DNA of 20,000 nt from the IMG/VR virus record IMGVR_UViG_3300042274_000333; one strand, written 5' to 3'. Made by a program: the position numbers and the translations under genes. Below are positions 2,504-20,000 of this stretch, piece after piece. Origin of the DNA: an uncultured virus (IMG/VR IMGVR_UViG_3300042274_000333) (Duplodnaviria; Heunggongvirae; Uroviricota; Caudoviricetes). A model generated the notes under the pieces. That model was given only the letters and a program-made list of their open reading frames with translations. It did not search any database and had not been told where the DNA came from. The stretch's first letter is position 1. The number at the start of each line of letters is the position of its first letter.

Positions 2504-3766
2504 ATGAAAGAAATTGACATCGTAAAAAAACTACAAGAAAATGGATTTGAAGCCTACTTCGTAGGTGGATGCGTAAGAGATATGATTTTAAGGAAACCTC
2601 CAAAAGATATTGACGTAGTGACTTCCGCTACTCCTGAAGAGGTTTCAAAAATTTTTGAAACCTCTTTTTTTGTGGGAGAAAGTTTCGGCATATCTCTCGT
2701 AAGCGGGGTTGAGGTAGCTACTTTTAGAACTGAAAGTTCTTATGACGGTAGAAAGCCTAAAAGTGTTCATTTTAGTTCTTCTCTTGAAGAAGACTCTAAC
2801 AGAAGGGACTTTACTTTTAATGCATTATATTTTGACCCGATTAAAGATAAGATTATAGACCTTCATTATGGAATTGAAGATTTAGAAACTGGAACTGTAA
2901 GGTTTATTGGAAAAGCAGAAGATAGAATTCTAGAAGACCATTTAAGAATTCTACGTGCTATAAGATTTGCTTCTGTTTACGGATTTACTCTTGATAAAGA
3001 GGCTGTTTCTGCCATTAAAGAAAACAAACATTTACTTCATAGCATTAGTGCAGAAAGAATAACGGCAGAGATAAAGAAAACAGGAAATAAATTCCATAAA
3101 TTTGTAGAATTATTGTATGACTTACATGTTATAGATGAAATTTTTCCGTATGCTTCTGCTTTGAAAAATGTTCCACAGGATGCTGTTTGGCACCCAGAGG
3201 GAGATACATGGATTCATACTTTGAAGGTTATCAAAAACCTACAGACTGATGATTTTGTATTGAACTTGGCTGGACTTTTTCATGACTTTGGAAAGTTAAC
3301 TACCACTAAAAATGAAGATGGGAAAATAACTTCTAAAGGTCATGAAGCTGATTCTGTTATGCTTGCTCTTCCTATATTAAAAATGCTTAAAGTTTCCAAC
3401 AAGGAAGCAGAAGATATTCTATGGTTAGTTGAAAATCATATGAAAGTAAAGCATTTTCTTGAAATGAAAAAAAGTAAGAGAATAGCTTTAGCAAAAGACG
3501 AAAGAGCAGTAAAACTTGCAGAACTTTCTGTTGCAGACAGCATGACTGAAAAAGCATTAGAGAAGAACACTGAAATAAAAGATGCCATACTGGAACTTCG
3601 TAAGGATGAAAAAACCTTTGTAGCTCCTTTGGTAACTGGAAATGATTTGATAGCTTTGGGAATGAAGCCTGGAAAAGTATTCAAAATAATACTTGATGAT
3701 TTATTTGATAAACAGATAAACAAAGGCATTACGTCAAAAGAAGAATTGTTAGAATATGTATTATAA
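2504..3766 (+). CDS. cca: class II tRNA nucleotidyltransferase (CCA-adding enzyme) with HD domain
   Basis: VGGCVRD, DIDV, RRDFTFNAL, EDHLRILRAIRFA, HPEG...FHDFGK, VTGNDLIALGMKPG. Confidence 0.93.
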   Translation: MKEIDIVKKLQENGFEAYFVGGCVRDMILRKPPKDIDVVTSATPEEVSKIFETSFFVGESFGISLVSGVEVATFRTESSYDGRKPKSVHFSSSLEEDSNRRDFTFNALYFDPIKDKIIDLHYGIEDLETGTVRFIGKAEDRILEDHLRILRAIRFASVYGFTLDKEAVSAIKENKHLLHSISAERITAEIKKTGNKFHKFVELLYDLHVIDEIFPYASALKNVPQDAVWHPEGDTWIHTLKVIKNLQTDDFVLNLAGLFHDFGKLTTTKNEDGKITSKGHEADSVMLALPILKMLKVSNKEAEDILWLVENHMKVKHFLEMKKSKRIALAKDERAVKLAELSVADSMTEKALEKNTEIKDAILELRKDEKTFVAPLVTGNDLIALGMKPGKVFKIILDDLFDKQINKGITSKEELLEYVL

Positions 3767-4296: not shown

Positions 4297-4354
4297 ATGG
4301 TAAACTCTTTCGCTCCAAACGAAAGTTATGTGAGTTCAAATCTTACCGCCATCG
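4282..4354 (+). tRNA. tRNA-Trp(CCA), overlapping the end of the HNH ORF by 15 nt
   Basis: TTTCG-CTCCAAA-CGAAA; acceptor GGTGGCG/CGCCATC; G73. Confidence 0.9.
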
Positions 4355-4360
4355 AATAAA

Positions 4361-4388
4361 GTTAAGGGTTCGATCCCTTTAGCACTCG
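4361..4388 (+). pseudogene. 3' half (T arm and acceptor strand) of interrupted tRNA-Trp
   Basis: AAGGG-TTCGATC-CCTTT-AGCACTC-G; AGCACTC pairs with GGGTGCT at 3812. Confidence 0.85.
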
Positions 4389-4434
4389 TTACGTTTCTCA
4401 TGCTGAAAAGAATTTACTTCATAAGGGGAGAAAT

Positions 4435-4632
4435 ATGCTATTTCGTCATAATGAAAGAAAGAAAAGGATAGAAGTTTATAAACTTCTACCTTGTGGGGAA
4501 GAGCGTTTGGTAAAAGTGAAGGTAGGTGTTATTCGCTTATTTGATGAAGAGAAAGTATTTCTCCCAAGAGAAGGGTCAAGGCTTACGCCAGAGAATCTTA
4601 TTGATATTGCAGGGTATATTTTGGAAGAATAA
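4435..4632 (+). CDS. hypothetical protein
   Basis: 65-aa ORF, GGGGAG RBS. Confidence 0.7.
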   Translation: MLFRHNERKKRIEVYKLLPCGEERLVKVKVGVIRLFDEEKVFLPREGSRLTPENLIDIAGYILEE

Positions 4633-6989: not shown

Positions 6990-7066
6990 GGGCTGTGGGA
7001 CTGCAAGGCGTGGTCGCCTCGTTTGCACCGAGGATATTCAGGAGGGTTCAATTCCCTCACGGTCCA
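6990..7066 (+). tRNA. tRNA-Ala(TGC)
   Basis: CCTCG-TTTGCAC-CGAGG; G3:U70, A73. Confidence 0.9.
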
Positions 7067-7208
7067 CAAAGCGTAACTGTGGACACCCCTTTTACGCTGA
7101 AACCCATGACGTTTAAAGCGCTTTCGTACATGGTGTGCTTTTTGGTGGCTACAGGAACCAACGCTAGTAGAGCGAGACCTACCTTGGGTGTGCACACCCA
7201 TGTTTTAT

Positions 7209-10530: not shown

Positions 10531-10592
10531 CAAAAAACTAAAAATTTTGTATAATAAAGTATAATCAAATGGATGCTAACAGCAATTTAAAA
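10527..10592 (+). repeat. promoter plus start of ACAGCAA element; near-identical copy at 16396..16461
   Basis: TTGACA-17-TATAAT-AAAGTATAATCAAATGGATGCTAACAGCAATTTAAAA; 2 mismatches between copies. Confidence 0.9.
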
Positions 10593-12521: not shown

Positions 12522-13127
12522 ATGATTAAAAACCTTCAAATAAATGAAGAAAGTTTCCCGTTTCAAATTTTAAGAAAAATGTATGATTGGGAAGGAAGGT
12601 TTTATCATACCATATATCATATTCAAGATATGATGCACTTTGCTTCAAAAGAACCTGATTTTACTGTAAATGTTGCTCTTGCAATATTATATCATGATGT
12701 TATAATCATTACTGGTAGCGAAGAAAATGAATTAGCATCTGCTGTGTTTTTCAAGTCTATGTGGGAAAGTGGTTTAGTTGATTCTTTGTTTATAAACAAA
12801 GAAGATTTAAACTCTGTTGATTCAGATAAAGTATTTGACTTAATCCTTGCTACAAAATATCATAGATTTACAGGAGACCCTGAAAACGATTTACTTATGA
12901 AGGCGGATTTGCTATGGTATTACAAAAATAACAACGGATACCAGTTAGTCAATGAAAATCTTATAAGAAAGGAATTTCAGAGCAAAAGCACTTATAGATA
13001 TTTAATCGGAAGAATAGAGTTTTTAGAAAATCTAAAAAAGACGCTTGAAGAGGATGGAGTTCTTGAAGATTATGTAAAAGGAATAGATGAAAATATTCTT
13101 TATCTTAAAGAGCGTTTTGAAAAATAA
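12522..13127 (+). CDS. HD-superfamily metal-dependent phosphohydrolase
   Basis: RFYHTIYHI, AILYHDVI, NELASA, ILATKYH, ADL, IRKEF...GRIEFL. Confidence 0.85.
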   Translation: MIKNLQINEESFPFQILRKMYDWEGRFYHTIYHIQDMMHFASKEPDFTVNVALAILYHDVIIITGSEENELASAVFFKSMWESGLVDSLFINKEDLNSVDSDKVFDLILATKYHRFTGDPENDLLMKADLLWYYKNNNGYQLVNENLIRKEFQSKSTYRYLIGRIEFLENLKKTLEEDGVLEDYVKGIDENILYLKERFEK

Positions 13128-13179
13128 AGAAGGATAAATGATATTGAACCACATGGTAAAATATAACCCAAAAAAATAG

Positions 13180-13208
13180 TTGCTAAAAAACTAAAAAAAT
13201 TGTATAAT
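13180..13208 (+). promoter_or_regulatory. sigma70-type promoter
   Basis: TTGCTA-17-TATAAT, same spacer as the promoter family. Confidence 0.8.
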
Positions 13209-13256
13209 AAGGTATAACGAAAAGAAGAAAAATAAAAAATGAACTAAAATTCATTA

Positions 13257-13354
13257 AAAGGAGGATAAGCCCATGAAGTAGTTTAGATTATCATTACCTC
13301 CATAAGTATAGTCGGTTTCTTAAGAAAAAACTGACAACAACATACTTATAGGAG
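13257..13354 (+). promoter_or_regulatory. leader mini-ORF with amber codon and RBS-sequestering hairpin (putative translational attenuator)
   Basis: AAAGGAGG; ATG AAG TAG TTT AGA TTA TCA TTA CCT CCA TAA (13273-13305); CTCC-ATAAGTAT pairs with ATACTTAT-A-GGAG (13342-13354). Confidence 0.75.
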
Positions 13355-13363
13355 AAAAGTAAA

Positions 13364-13714
13364 ATGGAAAAGATTTTTGATACGATTGAAGATTATAGAA
13401 ATGTGGTTTCTATGATGAAAGACTATTACAAAGAACTCTCTGCAAACATAAGAGAGGAAAAAGTAAAATACAAGAATTTACTCAGGGGAAGAGTATACCC
13501 TGACTATATGAATGTAAAATATCATCTTGATGATAACAGAAGAAATGCTAGGATTTTTAATGTAGTATATTCTATATTAAAAGGAAAATCGTATAAGCAG
13601 ATTGAACCCAAGATACGGGAGAAAAATGAGTTATACGGCGGTGAAATAAGAAAATTTTGTGAAAAATGGAATTTGCCTTCTGATCCTTTCGTAAAGGAGG
13701 TAAATAATGCTTAA
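13364..13714 (+). CDS. hypothetical protein translationally coupled to pth2
   Basis: 116 aa, AGGAG RBS, overlaps the pth2 start. Confidence 0.85.
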   Translation: MEKIFDTIEDYRNVVSMMKDYYKELSANIREEKVKYKNLLRGRVYPDYMNVKYHLDDNRRNARIFNVVYSILKGKSYKQIEPKIREKNELYGGEIRKFCEKWNLPSDPFVKEVNNA

Positions 13715-14090
13715 ACAGTATTTTTTGGTAAGGAAAGACTTGGGAATGTCAAAAGGGAGGATTGCTTCTCAAGTGGCGCACAGCGCTATTATGTGTCTTT
13801 TATCAAGTGGAGAGTGGAACGACAAAACAGTAACCTTCTCCCACTTACCGGATGCTATTCTTAATGATTTAAAGAAAGGATAGCCATTTACAAAAGTAGT
13901 TCTTTCAGCAAACTCGGAAACTGATTTTTATAATGTAGTAGAAAGTGTTAAGAAAACATCATTACCGTTTTATGTAATGATAGACAACGGATTCTATGAC
14001 AGCAATGGCATAGAAAAGGAAGAAGCAACTTGCTTGGCAATAGGTCCTTGCGAAGGGCTTCGGGAACTTGAAAGGTTTAGACTTTTGTGA
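13707..14090 (+). CDS. pth2: peptidyl-tRNA hydrolase Pth2 with in-frame TAG at codon 59 (13881-13883)
   Basis: MLKQYFLVRKDLGMSKGRIASQVAHSA...KKG*PFTKVVL...MIDNG...TCLAIGP...FRLL; AAGGAGG RBS; missed by the ORF track. Confidence 0.88.
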
Positions 14091-14095
14091 TTTTT

Positions 14096-14135
14096 GACTG
14101 GGAGGGTGCCAAACATCTTCCCAGTCCTTTTTTGA
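14096..14135 (+). terminator. intrinsic terminator after pth2
   Basis: GACTGGGAGGGTG/CATCTTCCCAGTC hairpin followed by a T tract. Confidence 0.7.
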
Positions 14136-14195
14136 CTTTGCCCCACGAAAGTGGGATGACGGTTTCGCTGTGCCAGCCTATGCAAAACAGTGGGT

Positions 14196-14408
14196 AGAGA
14201 AGTGGTGAAAAATACGGGAGTTATGTTGTCGGTCGCTGCAGAGGCGGTGACTTTATTCATAGCTCCAGTTGGCAGACACCCATATCTGTCGCCAGCTAGG
14301 CGCTGGAGAAGACGTAGAGCAAAATCAGAGAGTTAAGTGTACATAATACTCTCTTTCGTGCACGATAAGAGTCAGGCATGAATGTAGGTTCAAATCCTAC
14401 CTTCTCTA
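14196..14408 (+). ncRNA. tRNA-like RNA with large insertions (213 nt)
   Basis: Acceptor AGAGAAG/CTTCTCT-A, T arm GTAGG-TTCAAAT-CCTAC, D arm TGGTGAA...GGCAGACAC split by hairpin GGAGTTATG/CATAGCTCC. Confidence 0.7.
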
Positions 14409-14438
14409 AAAAGAATATTATGTAAAGAGGTTCGTTTT

Positions 14439-14711
14439 ATGAAAGTAGAAGAAGTATTAAGTTCTTTTAAACAATATTTTAGAAAAAATACTGTTCGTTT
14501 CAGAGAAAATCAAGAAGTAACTGCCTCTATTGGAAGGTTGTTAATTGACTTTAACAAGGAAAGGATGCTAATTATAGATGATAATTCTTTATCTTCTATA
14601 AAATATGAAGATATAGAAAGTATTGCTTTCTATGCTGGAGACGGATGGGATTATCCTAACGATATTAAAATAATTATTGACAAAGACAATTATATAAAAA
14701 TACATGTATAA
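14439..14711 (+). CDS. hypothetical protein
   Basis: 90 aa, GAGG RBS. Confidence 0.75.
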   Translation: MKVEEVLSSFKQYFRKNTVRFRENQEVTASIGRLLIDFNKERMLIIDDNSLSSIKYEDIESIAFYAGDGWDYPNDIKIIIDKDNYIKIHV

Positions 14712-14717
14712 TAGAAT

Positions 14718-14788
14718 GGGTTTGTGGTGTAACGGTAGCACAGAAAACTCTAAATTTTCTGGTGAGGGTTCAATTCCCTTCTTTCCCA
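14718..14788 (+). tRNA. amber suppressor tRNA (anticodon CTA)
   Basis: GAAAA-CTCTAAA-TTTTC; D arm GTGT-AACGGTA-GCAC; T arm GAGGG-TTCAATT-CCCTT; acceptor GGGTTTG/CTTTCCC has three U-U mismatches. Confidence 0.85.
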
Positions 14789-14800
14789 AAGGATATAAAA

Positions 14801-16381
14801 ATGAAAAGTACAAAAGAGCAAATTTTAGATTTACTTAATTTACTAGGAGAAGGTCAGCCTCAAAAAACTGGAAACTTTATAGAATATGAATTTAACCCTT
14901 CTCACATTGTTATTGAGCATGATAATGGAGCCAGAGAAGTACGTGAAGACGTTGGAATCACTACTTTTATTGTAGGTGTTAATAATGACCACCTTTCTTT
15001 TGAAACGTACTATGGGGTCAATAATAGACTTAAATATATCCCTGATAATACTTTTTCTATCCGTAGAATAAAGAAGAAATTTTTTATTAATAATTCAGAA
15101 AGAGGAAAATATCATGATGATTACATACTTGTAGAATTAAAAAGAGATTTTTTTGCTAAAGGTTCAAATTTAGGGTATTATATTCCAATAGAAAGGGAGA
15201 ATGACAACGTGTATGATTATGAAGAAAATAGTTTAGAAGGTAATTTTAAAAAAGCAAGAATGAAACTAATTCATTTTAATGATTTTAAAGAAGAAAGTTT
15301 TAGCAACAAAAAAAACATTGAATTTTCTTTAGATGAAAGCACGCCTTTTAAAGCATCTATGTATGAAGAAAGTTTAAGAGAACATGAATATTTGACAGCA
15401 AATGAATATATAAAGTCAGAATATTCTATATATGAAATCTTTAAAAGCTATAGTGATAAAGCTCTTATAAGCATATATTCTTCTGTTCCTGGAAATGTAA
15501 GAATAAAGATTTCAAGAGATGGTGTAGCATTATTTGATGTATATGGAAGATGTATAAATTTAGAAGTAAATGATGAATATGTAAATTTTCTGATAATTGA
15601 AAATAGAACAAATAAAAACTTCATTTGTAGTTTTTTACTACAGCCAGAGGAAATGCCTCCTTGGATTAAAGATCTTACAGAAGAAAAAGTAGATTCAGAG
15701 CAGATACTTATTAATAATGCTTTTAAGGAATTTAGAGAAGAAATAGATAAAGAAATTATTTCACAGTTATATAATAAAAAGGAGAATAAAATGAACAAAG
15801 CACTCAACGCATTTATGCCATCGTCTATCCCAAGTGGAACGATTGCACTTACTATGAATGGAACTATTGCAGTAAAAGCAGTAGATGAATCGTATGTTTC
15901 TTTTGATAAGGAAACTAAAACACTGGTAAATCACATGAATCTTGTATTTGGGCAAGATAAACTACACGAATTTAGTGCAGTTATGCCAGTAAACAAGGAA
16001 CAAGTAAAGATTGGAGACATCCTCCATACTGGACTTGGATGGGCTTTTGTTTCTGATATTGTTTCTGGAGAAGATGGTATTACCTCTTTGAAGGTAGTAA
16101 ATATTAACACCGGAAATGAAGAAAGCCAAGTAGACACAAAGAACGCATTTATCAATGCACCTACTGTAAAGAAACTTATCACTTTCTTCGGTGATTCTTT
16201 CTCTGGTGGAATGGATAATCCTAATGGCTTTAACCCTTTGATGTTCCTTATGATGGGAGACAGCAAGGGCGATAAGAACGATATGTTCAAGATGATGATG
16301 TTTTCTCAAATGATGGGAAATGGAAATCAAAGTGGAAATGGATTTAACCCACTTATGATGATGATGTTCATGGATAAGTAA
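14801..16381 (+). CDS. hypothetical protein with probable internal start at 15791 (Met-rich C-terminal product)
   Basis: ATG 14801 lies after the tRNA; AAGGAG-ATG at 15791 is in frame; NPLMFLMM/NPLMMMM repeats. Confidence 0.75.
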   Translation: MKSTKEQILDLLNLLGEGQPQKTGNFIEYEFNPSHIVIEHDNGAREVREDVGITTFIVGVNNDHLSFETYYGVNNRLKYIPDNTFSIRRIKKKFFINNSERGKYHDDYILVELKRDFFAKGSNLGYYIPIERENDNVYDYEENSLEGNFKKARMKLIHFNDFKEESFSNKKNIEFSLDESTPFKASMYEESLREHEYLTANEYIKSEYSIYEIFKSYSDKALISIYSSVPGNVRIKISRDGVALFDVYGRCINLEVNDEYVNFLIIENRTNKNFICSFLLQPEEMPPWIKDLTEEKVDSEQILINNAFKEFREEIDKEIISQLYNKKENKMNKALNAFMPSSIPSGTIALTMNGTIAVKAVDESYVSFDKETKTLVNHMNLVFGQDKLHEFSAVMPVNKEQVKIGDILHTGLGWAFVSDIVSGEDGITSLKVVNINTGNEESQVDTKNAFINAPTVKKLITFFGDSFSGGMDNPNGFNPLMFLMMGDSKGDKNDMFKMMMFSQMMGNGNQSGNGFNPLMMMMFMDK

Positions 16382-16395
16382 GGTAAAGATAATAC

Positions 16396-16424
16396 TTGAC
16401 AAAAAACTAAAAAAATTGTATAAT
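16396..16424 (+). promoter_or_regulatory. consensus sigma70 promoter
   Basis: TTGACA-17-TATAAT. Confidence 0.85.
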
Positions 16425-16438
16425 AAAGTATAATCAAA

Positions 16439-16493
16439 TGGATGCTAACAGCAATTTAAAAGTACTTTTTTGGTGTAAAGAAAAAGCATCCAG
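16439..16493 (+). ncRNA. ACAGCAA element 5 (minimal)
   Basis: TGGATGCT-AACAGCAA...AGCATCCA-G. Confidence 0.7.
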
Positions 16494-16497
16494 TTTT

Positions 16498-16580
16498 GGG
16501 CGATTAAGCAATGGTAGCGTTAGTGTAGTAAAACCCACAGTGGAGCCACTAAAATAAGGGTTCAATTCCCTTATCGTCCA
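16498..16580 (+). ncRNA. tRNA-like RNA with 21-nt anticodon loop and Ala-type acceptor
   Basis: GGGCGAT/ATCGTCC-A (G3:U70), stem TAGTG/CACTA, T arm AAGGG-TTCAATT-CCCTT. Confidence 0.7.
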
Positions 16581-16582
16581 AC

Positions 16583-16678
16583 GGTGTCGTAGAGAAATTG
16601 GCAAACTCCGCAGACGACCAAGAGAGTGCAGGCATCGTCTGCAATCCTGCTATGTAGGTTCGAATCCTACCGACACCA
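16583..16678 (+). ncRNA. tRNA-like RNA with 8-bp anticodon stem and 17-nt loop
   Basis: GGTGTCG/CGACACC-A, GCAGACGA/TCGTCTGC, T arm GTAGG-TTCGAAT-CCTAC. Confidence 0.72.
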
Positions 16679-16681
16679 CTT

Positions 16682-16730
16682 TGGAAACTAACAGCAAACA
16701 ACTTGAATGAGTAGCTTTAAAAGTTTCCAG
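16682..16730 (+). ncRNA. ACAGCAA element 6 (minimal)
   Basis: TGGAAACT-AACAGCAA...AGTTTCCA-G. Confidence 0.7.
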
Positions 16731-16982
16731 TTTTAATTTTAACTTATGTAGATAAAAAACGTTAGCAACGAAAAAGCATCTACTAAAGTATTATATGCGC
16801 TTACCCCAGTAGCTCTGGTAAGTAGCGCTAGTGCTGGCAAAGACTGCGAATCTAGTCAGCGAGCAACAACAAAGGCTTTGTCTTCGCAGGACAAAAATGG
16901 CGTAACCTCAAGTGAGAGGGGGAATCGGGATAATAAAGCCTTCCGATGCAAGGCGTTGTAAATGTTGTTGTCTTTTTATTTT

Positions 16983-17053
16983 GGTCTATTCGTCTAATGG
17001 TAGGACACCTGGTTCTCAGCCAGAAAACATCGGTTCAATTCCGGTATAGACTA
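16983..17053 (+). tRNA. tRNA-Glu(CTC)
   Basis: CCTGG-TTCTCAG-CCAGA; acceptor GGTCTAT/ATAGACT. Confidence 0.9.
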
Positions 17054-17055
17054 TT

Positions 17056-17116
17056 TGGATACTTACAGCAATCTTAATAAGGATAAATTTGGTTCGATTC
17101 CAAGAAAAGTATCCAG
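17056..17116 (+). ncRNA. ACAGCAA element 7 (small hairpin plus T arm)
   Basis: TGGATACTT-ACAGCAA...TTGG-TTCGATT-CCAA...AAGTATCCA-G. Confidence 0.72.
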
Positions 17117-17123
17117 CATTCGT

Positions 17124-17197
17124 CGCAGGGTGGACTGGAGAGGCTCCAGCTCGGTCTCATAAGCCGAATCACGAGGGTTCGACTCCCTCCTCTGCTA
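17124..17197 (+). tRNA. initiator-type tRNA-Met(CAT)
   Basis: C1xU72 mismatch; TCGGT-CTCATAA-GCCGA. Confidence 0.88.
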
Positions 17198-17202
17198 TTA
17201 AT

Positions 17203-17354
17203 AATGAAGTGGCGGAAACAGACGCAAGGTAGAAAAAGGATAGAGCAAACTGTATTAACAGGGGCTATCCCAAATAACAGAATACACACAGCTAGCTTAA
17301 GTGTATCACTGTTAACCTAAATGCTCATGTAGGTATTAAACCCTACCTTCATTA
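17203..17354 (+). ncRNA. tRNA-like RNA with expanded anticodon domain (152 nt)
   Basis: AATGAAG/CTTCATT-A, D arm TGGCGGAAACAGACGC, T-like arm GTAGG-TATTAAAC-CCTAC. Confidence 0.65.
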
Positions 17355-17780
17355 TTATTTACTTCTTGGTAAGATAGAGGTAAGAGCCTTTACTCGGGAT
17401 GTCCCATAAATGTATTATTTATTTTGTGGGAATGTAAAGGTTGGCTTTTCTGTTGAGCCACATAATAAAATCAGCAGACCTTGTTTGGGGAAGCAAGGTT
17501 ACGGTGATGCCAATGGCACCAATCTTACTAAGGCTTCAAATCCTTGCCGTACAAAGTTTTGACACGCCTCTACCGTTTGAGCCAGTGCGTGTAGCAATCT
17601 TCTAAAACCTGAATAAAAGAAGATTTGTATTAGTAAAAACGGTTCAGGGATAGGAAACACTTACATCCAGCAGTAAGCGTTTAATACGTGTTTAAGGTAA
17701 AGCCTGAATATCCTTAAACCTCTAGGTAAATAGAATAGTTGAGATTGTTTTATTTTCCGCTGGTTCAGGCATCATTTCTT

Positions 17781-17853
17781 GGTGAATGTAGCATAATGGT
17801 AATGCACCAGGTTGTGGAGCTGGTAGATGCGAGTTCAAGTCTCGTCGTTCACC
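17781..17853 (+). tRNA. tRNA-His(GTG)
   Basis: G-1:C73; CCAGG-TTGTGGA-GCTGG; acceptor GTGAATG/CGTTCAC. Confidence 0.9.
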
Positions 17854-17856
17854 CTT

Positions 17857-17885
17857 AAGGCGCACTTTTTAAGTGCGCCTTTTTT
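17857..17885 (+). terminator. intrinsic terminator ending the tRNA block
   Basis: AGGCGCACTT/AAGTGCGCCT followed by a T tract. Confidence 0.85.
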
Positions 17886-17923
17886 GTTTGAAAAGATACA
17901 TATATACTTGTATAGGAGAAAAA

Positions 17924-18340
17924 ATGAAGAAATTTAAAGTGGCTAAAAAGCCATATTCAATTGAAGAAGATTGCCCTAACTGTAAAGCAAAAGGGTATAT
18001 AGAAGTAGAAGTATTTGACAAATATACACAAGAAAATAAAAAACTTGCTTATATTTGCCCACAATGTGAAAATACAAAAAAAGTAAAAAAAGAAGAAGGC
18101 GAACGATACGAAATTGAAGAAGTGGAAGTTGTAGGAAACTGCCATTTTGAAAGTGGGGAAAACTTTGTTATTGAAACTATTCCCGAAGGTGGTTCTTCAA
18201 ACACTATTTTTCTAGAAGATGGAACTGTTTATTCCCTGGAAAGATTTCCAGTAAATGTGTATTTTGATTCTGTTGAAGAAGCAGAAGAACATCAAAAAGA
18301 TTTAGAGCAAAAAGATGAAGAGATAGAAACAGATAAATAA
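17924..18340 (+). CDS. hypothetical zinc-finger protein
   Basis: CPNCKAKG...CPQC; AGGAG RBS before ATG 17924. Confidence 0.8.
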   Translation: MKKFKVAKKPYSIEEDCPNCKAKGYIEVEVFDKYTQENKKLAYICPQCENTKKVKKEEGERYEIEEVEVVGNCHFESGENFVIETIPEGGSSNTIFLEDGTVYSLERFPVNVYFDSVEEAEEHQKDLEQKDEEIETDK

Positions 18341-19029
18341 TGGCAGAAACATACATCACAGGTGATTTACATGGAAGGTTTCCATTATACAAAAAAAACA
18401 TACCAGAATTTACCAAAGATGATTTTCTTATTGTCTGCGGTGATTTTGGTTATATATTTTCAGAGAAAGAAACTTCTTTTGAAAAAGAAAGACTTGATGA
18501 ACTCCAAAGTAATACTAATGGATGTACCATTTGCTTTGTGGATGGAAACCATGAAAACTTTGATAGGCTTAAAAACCTTCAAATGGAATACCGATTTGAT
18601 AATGAAGTTGGTGTAGTAAGAGAGGGCATTTATCATTTACGAAGGGGAAGACCTTATGTGATAAATGGTGATACTATGCTTACTTTTGGAGGAGCTATCT
18701 CTACTGATAGAATGAGTAGAATTCCTAATATAAACTGGTGGTATGATGAAGTTCCTAATGATGATGAAATAATATTGGCAGAAAATGTTATTAAGAGTCA
18801 GCCGGTTGATTACATCATTACACACACCTGTCCGTTTTCCGTGCGGAGACGTATAAAGAGTAAGAAGTTATATAACCTTCATTGTCCTACTGAAGTTGCT
18901 CTTGAAGGGATTAAACGTCAAGTAAAAGGTGGTTTCAAAAAATGGTATTTCGGACATTTTCATGCCGATGAAATAGTTGACAATAATTTTAGATTATTGT
19001 ATAATGATATTATAAGAATCGGAGAATAA
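18340..19029 (+). CDS. calcineurin-like metallophosphoesterase
   Basis: GDLHG, GDFG, DGNHEN, ITHT, GHFH. Confidence 0.92.
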   Translation: MAETYITGDLHGRFPLYKKNIPEFTKDDFLIVCGDFGYIFSEKETSFEKERLDELQSNTNGCTICFVDGNHENFDRLKNLQMEYRFDNEVGVVREGIYHLRRGRPYVINGDTMLTFGGAISTDRMSRIPNINWWYDEVPNDDEIILAENVIKSQPVDYIITHTCPFSVRRRIKSKKLYNLHCPTEVALEGIKRQVKGGFKKWYFGHFHADEIVDNNFRLLYNDIIRIGE

Positions 19030-19030
19030 T

Positions 19031-19351
19031 ATGGAAATCACTTATGACGAAATTTACGCTATGTGTTGGAAGTCTTTAAAAAAATCTATGGATCGACTTA
19101 AAGAAAATCCGTTTACCTATGAAGTGTGGAAAACTGTTGACAGTGTAACTTCTTCTATTGAAAATACTATTTGGGATGAGGCTCAAAAAAAAGATGCAAA
19201 GATAGTAAAAACTAAAAAAGAGCATTTTGATGGAATGAGGTGGAGTTCTTTAATAAAATCGTTAGAGGAAGTAAAAGAAAAACGACCAGAAGAATTTGAA
19301 AAGCATGTTAAGTTCTTTTATAACTTAATGAAAAATCTTGAAAGTTTATAA
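19031..19351 (+). CDS. hypothetical protein
   Basis: 106 aa, GGAG RBS. Confidence 0.78.
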   Translation: MEITYDEIYAMCWKSLKKSMDRLKENPFTYEVWKTVDSVTSSIENTIWDEAQKKDAKIVKTKKEHFDGMRWSSLIKSLEEVKEKRPEEFEKHVKFFYNLMKNLESL

Positions 19352-19356
19352 ACAAC

Positions 19357-19425
19357 GGGGTATACTGGATTAGATTGGTATTCTATAGAATAGCCAAGAC
19401 GAGGGTTCAACTCCCTCATACTCCA
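19357..19425 (+). ncRNA. miniature tmRNA-like RNA (tRNA-like domain only)
   Basis: GGGGTAT-ACTGGATTAGA, short hairpin, GAC-GAGGG-TTCAACT-CCCTC-ATACTCC-A; G3:U70; unpaired D loop. Confidence 0.7.
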
Positions 19426-19441
19426 CAACAGGAGATTACAT

Positions 19442-19657
19442 ATGGCAAGTGAATTTGATGCTACTAATGCCGTTTGGGGAGAAGACCTCCAAGACATATT
19501 TTTTGAAGAGCCATATGTATATATGGATAATAGAATAACTCTCATGTTTGACGAAAAGGGAGAGGCATCTTTGTTGATGCCTATATATTATAATACACCT
19601 TTAGAAATTATACTTGAGAGCTTAAAAGAGATAGAAGAATATTTTTCTTCTTTATAG
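19442..19657 (+). CDS. hypothetical protein
   Basis: 71 aa, AGGAG RBS. Confidence 0.75.
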   Translation: MASEFDATNAVWGEDLQDIFFEEPYVYMDNRITLMFDEKGEASLLMPIYYNTPLEIILESLKEIEEYFSSL

Positions 19658-19681
19658 AGTGGTTTTTACCACTCTTTTTTT
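19656..19681 (+). terminator. intrinsic terminator
   Basis: AGAGTGGT/ACCACTCT followed by a T tract. Confidence 0.8.
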
Positions 19682-19693
19682 ATTAACAAAAAA

Positions 19694-19722
19694 TTGACAA
19701 AATTTTAAAAAAATAGTATAAT
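19694..19722 (+). promoter_or_regulatory. consensus sigma70 promoter
   Basis: TTGACA-17-TATAAT. Confidence 0.85.
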
Positions 19723-19748
19723 AGTGATATACGAAAAAGGAGAAAACT

Positions 19749-20000
19749 TTGATTGACAAGAGCAGTAATAGATATAAAAAATTTTTATTGTTAACTTCAT
19801 ATATTATTTCTGGAAGAAAAGCTTATTGTATTTTTGAGAGTGAGAAATATATTTTTGAAGGGAGAGCTATATCCTCTTGCAATAGCATCTTTCATAGTGG
19901 TTGTAATAATTGCCCTATGCGTATAAACTCTTTGGAAAAAATAAAGAAAATTATAATAAGAGAAAACACGATAAAAAGTAAAGACCATGGCTATATTATT
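19749..20000 (+). CDS. hypothetical protein, 5' part (runs off the window)
   Basis: AAGGAG RBS, TTG start, open frame MIDKSSNRYKKFLL... to the window end. Confidence 0.65.
   Translation, partial: MIDKSSNRYKKFLLLTSYIISGRKAYCIFESEKYIFEGRAISSCNSIFHSGCNNCPMRINSLEKIKKIIIRENTIKSKDHGYII

Follow-up and report, generated by a model that had tools for sequence, protein, structure and literature searches.

The 20,000-nt stretch of DNA analyzed here (the window; from an uncultured virus of the Caudoviricetes, IMG/VR record IMGVR_UViG_3300042274_000333) carries a 69-nt gene for a transfer-messenger RNA (tmRNA) reduced to its tRNA-like domain (TLD). The gene has the structure of a TLD, belongs to a family of phage mini-tmRNAs, displays structural selection, and persists in diverged relatives of the phage. 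We assign a probability of about 0.55 to the reading that its product is a functional, tag-less mini-tmRNA that has kept only the TLD and competes with the tmRNA of the host for the protein SmpB. Processing of the RNA, its charging, its binding to SmpB, and its effect on trans-translation are predictions from the sequence.

From 5' to 3', the gene reads GGGGTAT, ACTGGATTAGA, TTGGTATTC-TATA-GAATAGCCAA, GAC, GAGGG-TTCAACT-CCCTC, ATACTCC, and A (Table 1), and its minimum free energy (MFE) fold is exactly the TLD structure (−21.2 kcal/mol, z = −2.35; 3 of 200 shuffled sequences fold equally well). The acceptor stem contains the pairs G1:C72, G2:C71, G3:U70, and G4:C69 and is followed by the discriminator A73; G3:U70 and A73 constitute the identity set of alanyl-tRNA synthetase (AlaRS). 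The stemless D loop is CUGGAUUAGA, in a D region that contains CTGGATTAGA; read as GGAUUAGAU and compared with the GGAUUCGAC type of tmRNA, the loop shows one change at the conserved C and has U in place of the last C. Between the D region and the GAC junction lies a 23-nt hairpin, which is too short for a resume codon, a tag frame, or pseudoknots. The 69-nt gene is devoid of a resume codon, tag frame, stop codon, pseudoknots PK1–PK4, and helix 5, and also of a D stem, a 7-nt anticodon loop, and an anticodon. A TLD-shaped search pattern matches the window once and none of 200 shuffles. An earlier note, made from the sequence alone, had listed a GGGG start, G3:U70, A73, a stemless D loop, GAC before the T arm, and a helix 2 closed by a short hairpin with no tag frame; all of these are present in the sequence and the fold.

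The equivalents of the residues that contact SmpB were located through the alignment of the 69-nt gene to RF00023, the tmRNA model of Rfam. Positions 19369, 19371, 19399, and 19373 are what we take to be the counterparts of A15, U17, A334, and G19 in E. coli numbering. In the tmRNA–SmpB complex, Trp122 of SmpB is cradled by A15, U17, and A334, and G19 is needed for SmpB binding (PMC8363625, cited, like the other papers below, from excerpts of its text).

Given 1.2 kb of context, RF00023 aligns to the gene from end to end (model positions 1–374, E 7e-14), with 15 nt in place of 316 model positions, with the acceptor stem, AucuGGaUUCGAC, GGAC, and the T arm aligned, and with no non-canonical pair flagged. 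On the 69-nt gene, RF00023 also outscores the tRNA model of the same clan. The score of 39.1 bits, however, lies below the RF00023 gathering score of 47 and cannot by itself separate the gene from a tRNA-Ala because tRNA-Ala genes reach about 31–36 bits: a confirmed tRNA-Ala scores 32.4 bits and other 76-nt matches in three bacterial genomes score 30.8–35.9 bits, so that the margin over genuine tRNA-Ala genes is just 3–9 bits. ARAGORN and Rfam at its gathering thresholds make neither a tRNA nor a tmRNA call at 19357–19425. On a shorter, 181-nt slice, Rfam returns a truncated 3' match of 16.4 bits, and a permuted-tmRNA model scores the 69-nt gene at 9.5 bits.

Part of the gene is shared with ordinary tRNAs. 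In a blastn comparison with isolate phages, the 3' half shares ~93% identity with the corresponding halves of tRNA-Ala genes from T5-like phages; all 90 records are matched in this half only, and none spans 80% of the query. An identical T arm is found in a tRNA of the phage itself, tRNA-Gly(TCC). Judged by sequence, the T arm and the preceding GAC are therefore not specific to tmRNA.

A model built on the family itself does separate the 69-nt gene from tRNA-Ala. This model, R2, was built from 100 family matches, excluding the window and G001 (a 46.9-kb IMG/VR record of the same phage, rated 21% complete, which is 100% identical to window positions 13013–20000 and extends downstream), in an alignment guided by another model, R1, whose 8-sequence seed contained the window element. 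R2 scores the window element at 57.8 bits (E 7.6e-13), compared with 32.1 bits for a bacterial tRNA-Ala(CGC), 27.5 bits for a bacterial tRNA-Ala(TGC), 17.5 bits for the tRNA-Ala of the window, and at most 22.4 bits for the other standard tRNAs of the window. The gap between the element and these three real tRNA-Ala genes amounts to at least 25 bits. Two copies that likewise did not enter the model, those of Streptomyces phages BRock and LuckySocke, reach 72.9 and 75.7 bits.

The family was collected with search patterns. A first scan of IMG/VR gave 33 loci with 17 distinct sequences, of which 11 resemble mini-tmRNAs and have a perfect acceptor stem, and a broader pattern gave at least 120 loci, 115 of which supplied at least 98 distinct sequences with a 7/7 acceptor stem. 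Among the matches listed, 81 of 98 are of a long form (75–86 nt), in which helix 2 leads through an A-rich internal loop into a small inner hairpin, and 17, including the window gene, are of a short form (59–70 nt), in which a short loop simply closes helix 2. In the same set, CCA is encoded in 35 of 98, the D-loop variant GGNTTAGA occurs in 10 of 98, and the window element has the only GGATTAGA D loop. Among isolates, BRock (L118:1491-1568) and LuckySocke (L119:1501-1578) carry unannotated mini-tmRNA genes within their GenBank tRNA arrays, and further matches occur in Streptomyces phages GiJojo and Alone3, the GiJojo match lying under a coding sequence (CDS) annotated as 'hypothetical protein'.

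Covariation was evaluated in a model-fitted alignment of 99 matches (86 distinct), which leans toward the structure of the model. Across the 86 distinct sequences, 92.7% of the cells are paired versus 62.9% after shuffling, changes on both sides are found at 9/9 pairs of helix 2 and at 4/5 pairs of the T stem, and the covariation score is 0.653 versus at most 0.100 for controls with slid partners. The pairs G1-C72, G2-C71, and G3-U70 are present in 86/86 distinct rows; the invariance of G1–G4, U70–A73, and parts of the D and T loops is uninformative because the search pattern fixed them. As read from this alignment, the family shows selection on structure. Together with the end-to-end alignment to RF00023 and the 57.8 bits obtained with R2, the covariation bears out the central claim of the earlier note, a tmRNA reduced to its tRNA-like domain.

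SmpB was detected neither in the window and the 21% complete G001 nor in 10 further records that carry a TLD-only gene, among them 3 complete isolate genomes; the partner of the RNA would therefore be the SmpB of the host. Full-length tmRNA was likewise absent from the window, from G001, and from the 3 complete isolate genomes.

TLD-only genes were also observed on bacterial chromosomes. Those of Candidatus Poribacteria carry a conserved 82–83-nt TLD-only tmRNA paralogue (at least 20 of the 80 loci listed, including L373, L381, and L384) whose helix 2 differs between species. In each of the 3 genomes checked, a full-length tmRNA (177–185 bits) is found beside the mini form (64–70 bits). One Poribacteria genome has three more matches of ~70 nt with 38–43 bits on the tmRNA model; the one inspected, L429, is TLD-like and is not called as a tRNA by ARAGORN. 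These observations suggest that the home of mini-tmRNAs is cellular, not viral.

The similarity of the 3' half to phage tRNA-Ala genes and the identity of the T arm with that of the phage's tRNA-Gly would also be compatible with a functionless, decaying remnant of a tRNA-Ala or a tmRNA, arisen by a recent internal deletion or as a pseudogene. At the locus itself, no syntenic relatives were found with which this could be checked: blastn of 18340–20000 against 50,697 phage records gave no match, the one IMG/VR record in which an exact 28-mer of the element recurs is G001, and the 106-aa open reading frame (ORF) upstream has no relative besides G001. Relatives of the metallophosphatase used as an anchor are at most 42% identical (best 80 of 240 in IMG/VR; best 80 of 581 in metagenomes), and R1 returned a single match in those 80 metagenome loci, an ordinary tRNA-Ala(TGC). 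Because these searches gave no near relatives of the ORF and of the anchor, synteny is unusable for this locus. Three of the 80 IMG/VR anchor loci, contigs of 91–139 kb (L057, L059, and L062), have an identical 125-nt tmRNA-like gene at 4334–4458 (+), ~670 nt downstream of a homologue of the window metallophosphatase. This gene begins like a TLD, has a T arm, and encodes CCA. A very short tag may be encoded in it, and its fold is no better than that of shuffled sequences (z = −0.05).

Diverged relatives of the phage are nevertheless present in public metagenomes from wastewater, landfill, manure, and digesters. We compared contigs of three DNA runs from separate studies (X10, X11, and X12) and of one RNA run over positions 18900–19700. 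The X10 contig (3.6 kb) spans this entire region with 61 substitutions and 8 gaps, a divergence of ~8%. Among the differences listed, three lie within the element: 19375 T>C affects the first pair of helix 2, 19387 A>G falls in the tetraloop, and 19393 G>A converts a G:U pair of the fold to A:U. All three are common to X10, X11, and X12, and the differences listed for these contigs include no insertion or deletion in the element. The 46 nt of acceptor stem, discriminator, D region, GAC, and T arm show no change among the differences listed, 45 more lying beyond these, so that low-depth variants inside the element are possible. On the same footing, the upstream ORF (321 nt) has 23 substitutions and 5 insertion or deletion events in X10, and the first 98 nt of the downstream ORF have 11 substitutions. 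In the X11 contig, 14 letters replace 296 nt of the upstream ORF (joint 19052->19349) with the RNA gene and the promoter retained, and the X12 contig skips 174 nt of the same ORF and also retains the RNA gene.

Since relatives at ~8% divergence have the exact 69-nt form, the gene is no fresh deletion scar, an outcome that the earlier note had named as refuting its proposal. The 69-nt form is older than ~8% divergence and outlasts the neighboring ORF. A decaying remnant is also at odds with the confinement of the listed changes to the helix-2 hairpin, with the same short design in 17 of the 98 distinct family members among the matches listed, with the perfect acceptor stem and T arm, and with the placement of the gene in a unit that has its own consensus promoter and terminator; we consider it very unlikely.

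The window is a portion of a large phage genome with a low G+C content (33%) in which a tRNA array predominates. ARAGORN identifies 23 tRNA genes in the window, every one on the plus strand and including a suppressor tRNA(CTA); none of the 23 encodes CCA. The CCA-adding enzyme of the phage (Table 1) is presumed to complete the 3' end of the mini-tmRNA as well as those of the tRNAs. The mini-tmRNA gene occupies a 90-nt gap between the 106-aa and 71-aa ORFs at the edge of the array, and another 12/12 promoter match, by consensus only, follows the unit at 19694–19722.

Table 1. The mini-tmRNA gene, its parts, and neighboring features in the window
Feature	Position	Strand	Remarks
TLD-only (CDS-less) tmRNA gene, short form, 69 nt	19357..19425	+	Identified by RF00023, family model R2, and MFE fold
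Acceptor stem, 5' strand GGGGTAT	19357..19363	+	Pairs with 19418-19424; 7 bp
Stemless D region ACTGGATTAGA, 11 nt	19364..19374	+	Aligned to tmRNA consensus AucuGGaUUCGA
Helix 2 hairpin, 9 pairs, one bulge, loop TATA	19375..19397	+	Stands in for the mRNA-like domain and pseudoknots
GAC junction	19398..19400	+	G and A opposite the GA of the D region, compare helix 2a of Rfam
T arm GAGGG-TTCAACT-CCCTC	19401..19417	+	5-bp stem, 7-nt loop
Acceptor stem, 3' strand ATACTCC, and discriminator A	19418..19425	+	No CCA encoded; CAA next
Upstream ORF, 106 aa	19031..19351	+	No family; same unit as RNA gene; internal deletions in relatives
Downstream ORF, 71 aa	19442..19657	+	No family; ribosome-binding site begins 7 nt past RNA gene
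Sigma-70-type promoter TTGACA-17-TATAAT	18977..19005	+	12/12, consensus match only; likely start of unit, precedes upstream ORF
Intrinsic-terminator-like hairpin and T run	19656..19683	+	Follows downstream ORF, ends unit
CCA-adding enzyme (tRNA nucleotidyltransferase)	2504..3766	+	Pfam PolyA_pol head domain 1.1e-32; PHROG 1.3e-77

This setting also bears on the idea that the element is a phage attachment site (attP) carrying part of a host ssrA gene for integration. The 3' end of ssrA is a frequent integration site of prophages and islands, which then contain the 3' portion of the gene (excerpt of PMC10865867). The element, however, comprises both acceptor halves and the 5' D loop, which is more than a 3' fragment, it lies within a tRNA array and inside a promoter–terminator unit, and there is no integrase among the 24 ORFs of the window. 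We regard an attachment site as hardly credible.

A different role for an alanine-charged, non-decoding tRNA-like RNA, as a decoy for nucleases or defense systems that attack tRNA or tmRNA or as a donor of aminoacyl groups, would fit the presence of other odd tRNA-like genes in the same array. One of these, at 16498–16580 (+), is 83 nt long and combines the alanine identity elements G3:U70 and A73 with a weak D arm; ARAGORN is silent on it. In place of an anticodon loop, it has 21 nt with a small hairpin, AAAACCCACAGTGGAG, which resembles the inner hairpin of the long-form mini-tmRNAs. As a candidate second mini-tmRNA it was rejected, since its 32.9 bits with R1 and 34.6 bits with R2 are about those of a real tRNA-Ala (32.1 bits); the tRNA model gives 33.6 bits. 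The other, at 16583–16678 (+), is a 96-nt tRNA gene with an anticodon loop enlarged by ~22 nt and with an 8-bp stem, scored at 43.8 bits by the tRNA model and not called by ARAGORN. The two genes suggest that the phage makes several non-decoding tRNA mimics. For the 69-nt gene, such a role is nonetheless quite improbable: its D loop and GAC junction match the SmpB-binding elbow of tmRNA and not a generic tRNA, family-wide conservation falls on exactly these D-loop and GAC motifs, and nothing positive points to another partner.

The array has further unusual features. In addition to the ARAGORN genes, Rfam finds three tRNA-like matches and a 558-nt ROOL RNA (236 bits); the latter is full-length (RF03087, 11359–11916 (+), 236.2 bits, E 6.4e-53) and lies between tRNA-Gly(TCC) and another tRNA. 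The phage tRNA-Ala(TGC) at 6990–7067 (+) has an unusual D region; ARAGORN calls it, and Rfam at its cut-off does not. Six copies of the motif CTNACAGCAA lie on the plus strand (at 10576, 10725, 12004, 16445, 16688, and 17062), compared with an expectation of 0.18, and none of 200 shuffles reaches six. The three copies inspected (16436–16500, 16679–16745, and 17052–17125) belong to elements of ~60 nt beside tRNA-like genes, and in each a short closing stem (GGAxxC...GxxTCCAG) has its 5' arm just ahead of the motif. In Rfam, the element has a weak match to Dictyostelium Class I RNA, with which it has the motif in common (20.2 bits, E 0.66).

As a competitor of host tmRNA, the RNA would be transcribed from the promoter at 18977–19005 along with the two small ORFs, excised in the manner of a tRNA, and provided with CCA by the CCA-adding enzyme of the phage or the host. 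Host AlaRS would charge it with alanine by way of G3:U70 and A73, and host SmpB would bind it through the elbow formed by the D loop and GAC. Host tmRNA would then face competition for SmpB and probably, in addition, for EF-Tu and stalled ribosomes, so that stalling during infection would be uncoupled from ssrA tagging and the accompanying degradation. A TLD molecule similar to that of Mycobacterium phage DS6A, chargeable or not, reportedly inhibited tmRNA strongly in E. coli (PMC4131195 and PMC11915505, both citing Mao et al. 2009), and titration of SmpB has been proposed as a possible cause (PMC4131195, citing the same work). In vitro, fragments consisting of the TLD alone bind both SmpB and EF-Tu on the ribosome, where they also take the peptide, according to the excerpts of PMC3895274 and PMC8363625.

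Several observations weigh against the gene being such a competitor. To the low RF00023 score, its narrow margin over tRNA-Ala, and the guidance of the R2 alignment by a model seeded with the element must be added that the 20-mer GACGAGGGTTCAACTCCCTC is identical in the phage's own tRNA-Gly(TCC), and that the conserved C of GGAUUCGAC is an A here, a variant found in 10 of 98 relatives among the matches listed. Barring a change of the partner beyond the differences listed, 19375 T>C would disrupt the pair with which helix 2 begins. Because the G001 record is just 21% complete, SmpB or a full-length tmRNA may be encoded elsewhere in the phage. The evidence for expression is weak. A metatranscriptome (RNA-library run X23) contains a 257-nt contig covering 19142–19398 at ≥ 99% identity, which is compatible with a co-transcript; this is no proof of expression because contigs cannot show ends, strand, or level, and the coverage ends at 19398 and may stem from DNA carry-over. 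Finally, it is not obvious why a block of trans-translation would benefit the phage.

The main rival of the competitor reading is rescue without a tag. The alanylated TLD would enter stalled ribosomes alongside SmpB and EF-Tu, there to accept the nascent chain, and a hydrolase, possibly a phage PTH2 protein, would cleave the peptidyl-TLD after drop-off or release. Peptidyl transfer to a TLD-only tmRNA takes place in vitro (Shimizu and Ueda 2006, cited in PMC3895274), CDS-less tmRNAs persist together with SmpB in mitochondria, and such tmRNAs are reported from two plastids (excerpt of PMC11915505). The window has a PTH2-domain gene of the archaeal/eukaryotic type at 13707–14090 (+), and the suppressor tRNA(CTA) at 14717–14789 lies 630 nt downstream of it. 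The frame of this gene is broken by a single in-frame TAG at codon 59; the domain is intact when the TAG is read through (68.9 bits, residues 2–116), but the gene may be a pseudogene. PTH2 or Pth is encoded in none of 5 other TLD-only-bearing records, three of which are complete isolate genomes, and the link is therefore no feature of the family. The suggestion in the earlier note that the peptidyl product could be cleared by Pth2 accordingly finds a candidate gene in the window and no parallel in these records. There is, in addition, no known step that ends rescue without a resume codon and a stop codon, and the published test of a similar RNA gave inhibition and not rescue (excerpt of PMC4131195). 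We consider rescue without a tag unlikely.

An elaboration of tag-free rescue would place the mini-tmRNA in a toolkit in which the suppressor tRNA(CTA) causes readthrough of TAG, the ribosomes that arrive at mRNA ends as a result are freed by the alanylated TLD and SmpB without tagging, and PTH2 recycles the peptidyl-TLD; this has, in our estimate, an outside chance. The same slim chance attaches to the proposal that synthesis of PTH2 itself needs the suppressor for the TAG at codon 59, which would tie rescue to recoding. TAG is the stop of 6 of the 25 window ORFs examined. Over ~60 kb of the phage, no signal of global TAG recoding was found: reading TAG as sense raises the plus-strand ORF coverage from 0.487 to 0.56, and TGA as sense lifts it as far, to 0.565.

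Among known systems, the closest is the gene of DS6A, listed as 'Mycobacterium phage DS6A (TLD only)' by Hudson, Lau, and Williams (PMC4131195) and repeated in the 2025 tmRNA database paper (PMC11915505). This gene (tmRNA Website tmID 11587; NC_023744.1 28478-28557, L117:1485-1564) is 80 nt long and unannotated in its record, and it scores 43.2 bits with RF00023, versus 39.1 for the window element, and 49.8 bits with R1, being outside the R1 seed. Like the window gene, it is phage-encoded and has the standard order of parts, G3:U70 and A73, a stemless D loop, a self-closed helix 2, a T arm, and no tag frame. Neither SmpB nor a full-length tmRNA was found in the DS6A genome. DS6A, however, has the long form with an internal loop and the inner hairpin GAAAACCGCACGCGG, both absent from the 69-nt gene, and its D loop GGTGGTCGA and T arm are unlike those of the window gene. 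It is moreover a 60-kb temperate actinophage with no large tRNA array, whereas the window phage is large, with 33% G+C and at least 23 tRNAs. Streptomyces phages BRock, LuckySocke, GiJojo, and Alone3 and the IMG/VR family have the same architecture as the window gene, and the BRock and LuckySocke copies also lie in tRNA arrays; the IMG/VR family differs in being mostly of the 75–86-nt long form.

With standard tmRNA (SsrA), the window gene shares the GGGG start, G3:U70, A73, the D-loop motif, the tandem G-A at the base of helix 2, GAC, and the T arm, but not the resume codon, tag frame, stop codon, PK1–PK4, or helix 5. It resembles tRNA-Ala in G3:U70 and A73, in the acceptor stem and T arm, and in its 3' half, which is ~93% identical to that of tRNA-Ala genes from T5-like phages; it differs in lacking a D stem, an anticodon stem-loop, and an anticodon, and in drawing no tRNA call from ARAGORN or from Rfam at its cut-off. 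CDS-less tmRNAs of organelles are known from jakobid and oomycete mitochondria and from two Mallomonadaceae plastids, the latter of ~65 bp (PMC11915505). By description, these consist of about the TLD only, without a tag frame and of similar size; unlike the window gene, they co-occur with a dedicated imported SmpB and represent a resident gene that was reduced and not an extra, virus-borne one. Engineered TLD fragments (Shimizu and Ueda 2006; Neubauer et al. 2012, cited in PMC3895274 and PMC8363625) also have helix 2 closed but are, again by description, laboratory constructs from bacterial tmRNAs. AcrIIIA1 was considered as a precedent and set aside, since the excerpt of PMC11662646 concerns host tRNA and tmRNA fragments and not a phage gene. 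We found no broad literature account of phage mini-tmRNAs beyond the mentions of DS6A, in a search that left subscription journals largely outside.

The finding by itself opens no new category. TLD-only tmRNAs are in print for one phage (DS6A), some mitochondria, and two plastids, and standard annotation tools pass over them; the kind is thus already published, common in phages, and rarely annotated, and the window gene adds a genuine member of the short form. The case is well supported and comes from a large, tRNA-rich phage of wastewater- and landfill-type habitats, in which natural variation provides evidence that the short form is maintained. On our analysis, the RNA probably competes with the rescue-and-tag system of the host, and the neighborhood of CCA-adding enzyme, suppressor tRNA, and PTH2 offers a concrete and testable alternative to the decoy idea. 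If phages commonly disable or bypass ssrA tagging, trans-translation would join the host functions that phages routinely manipulate.

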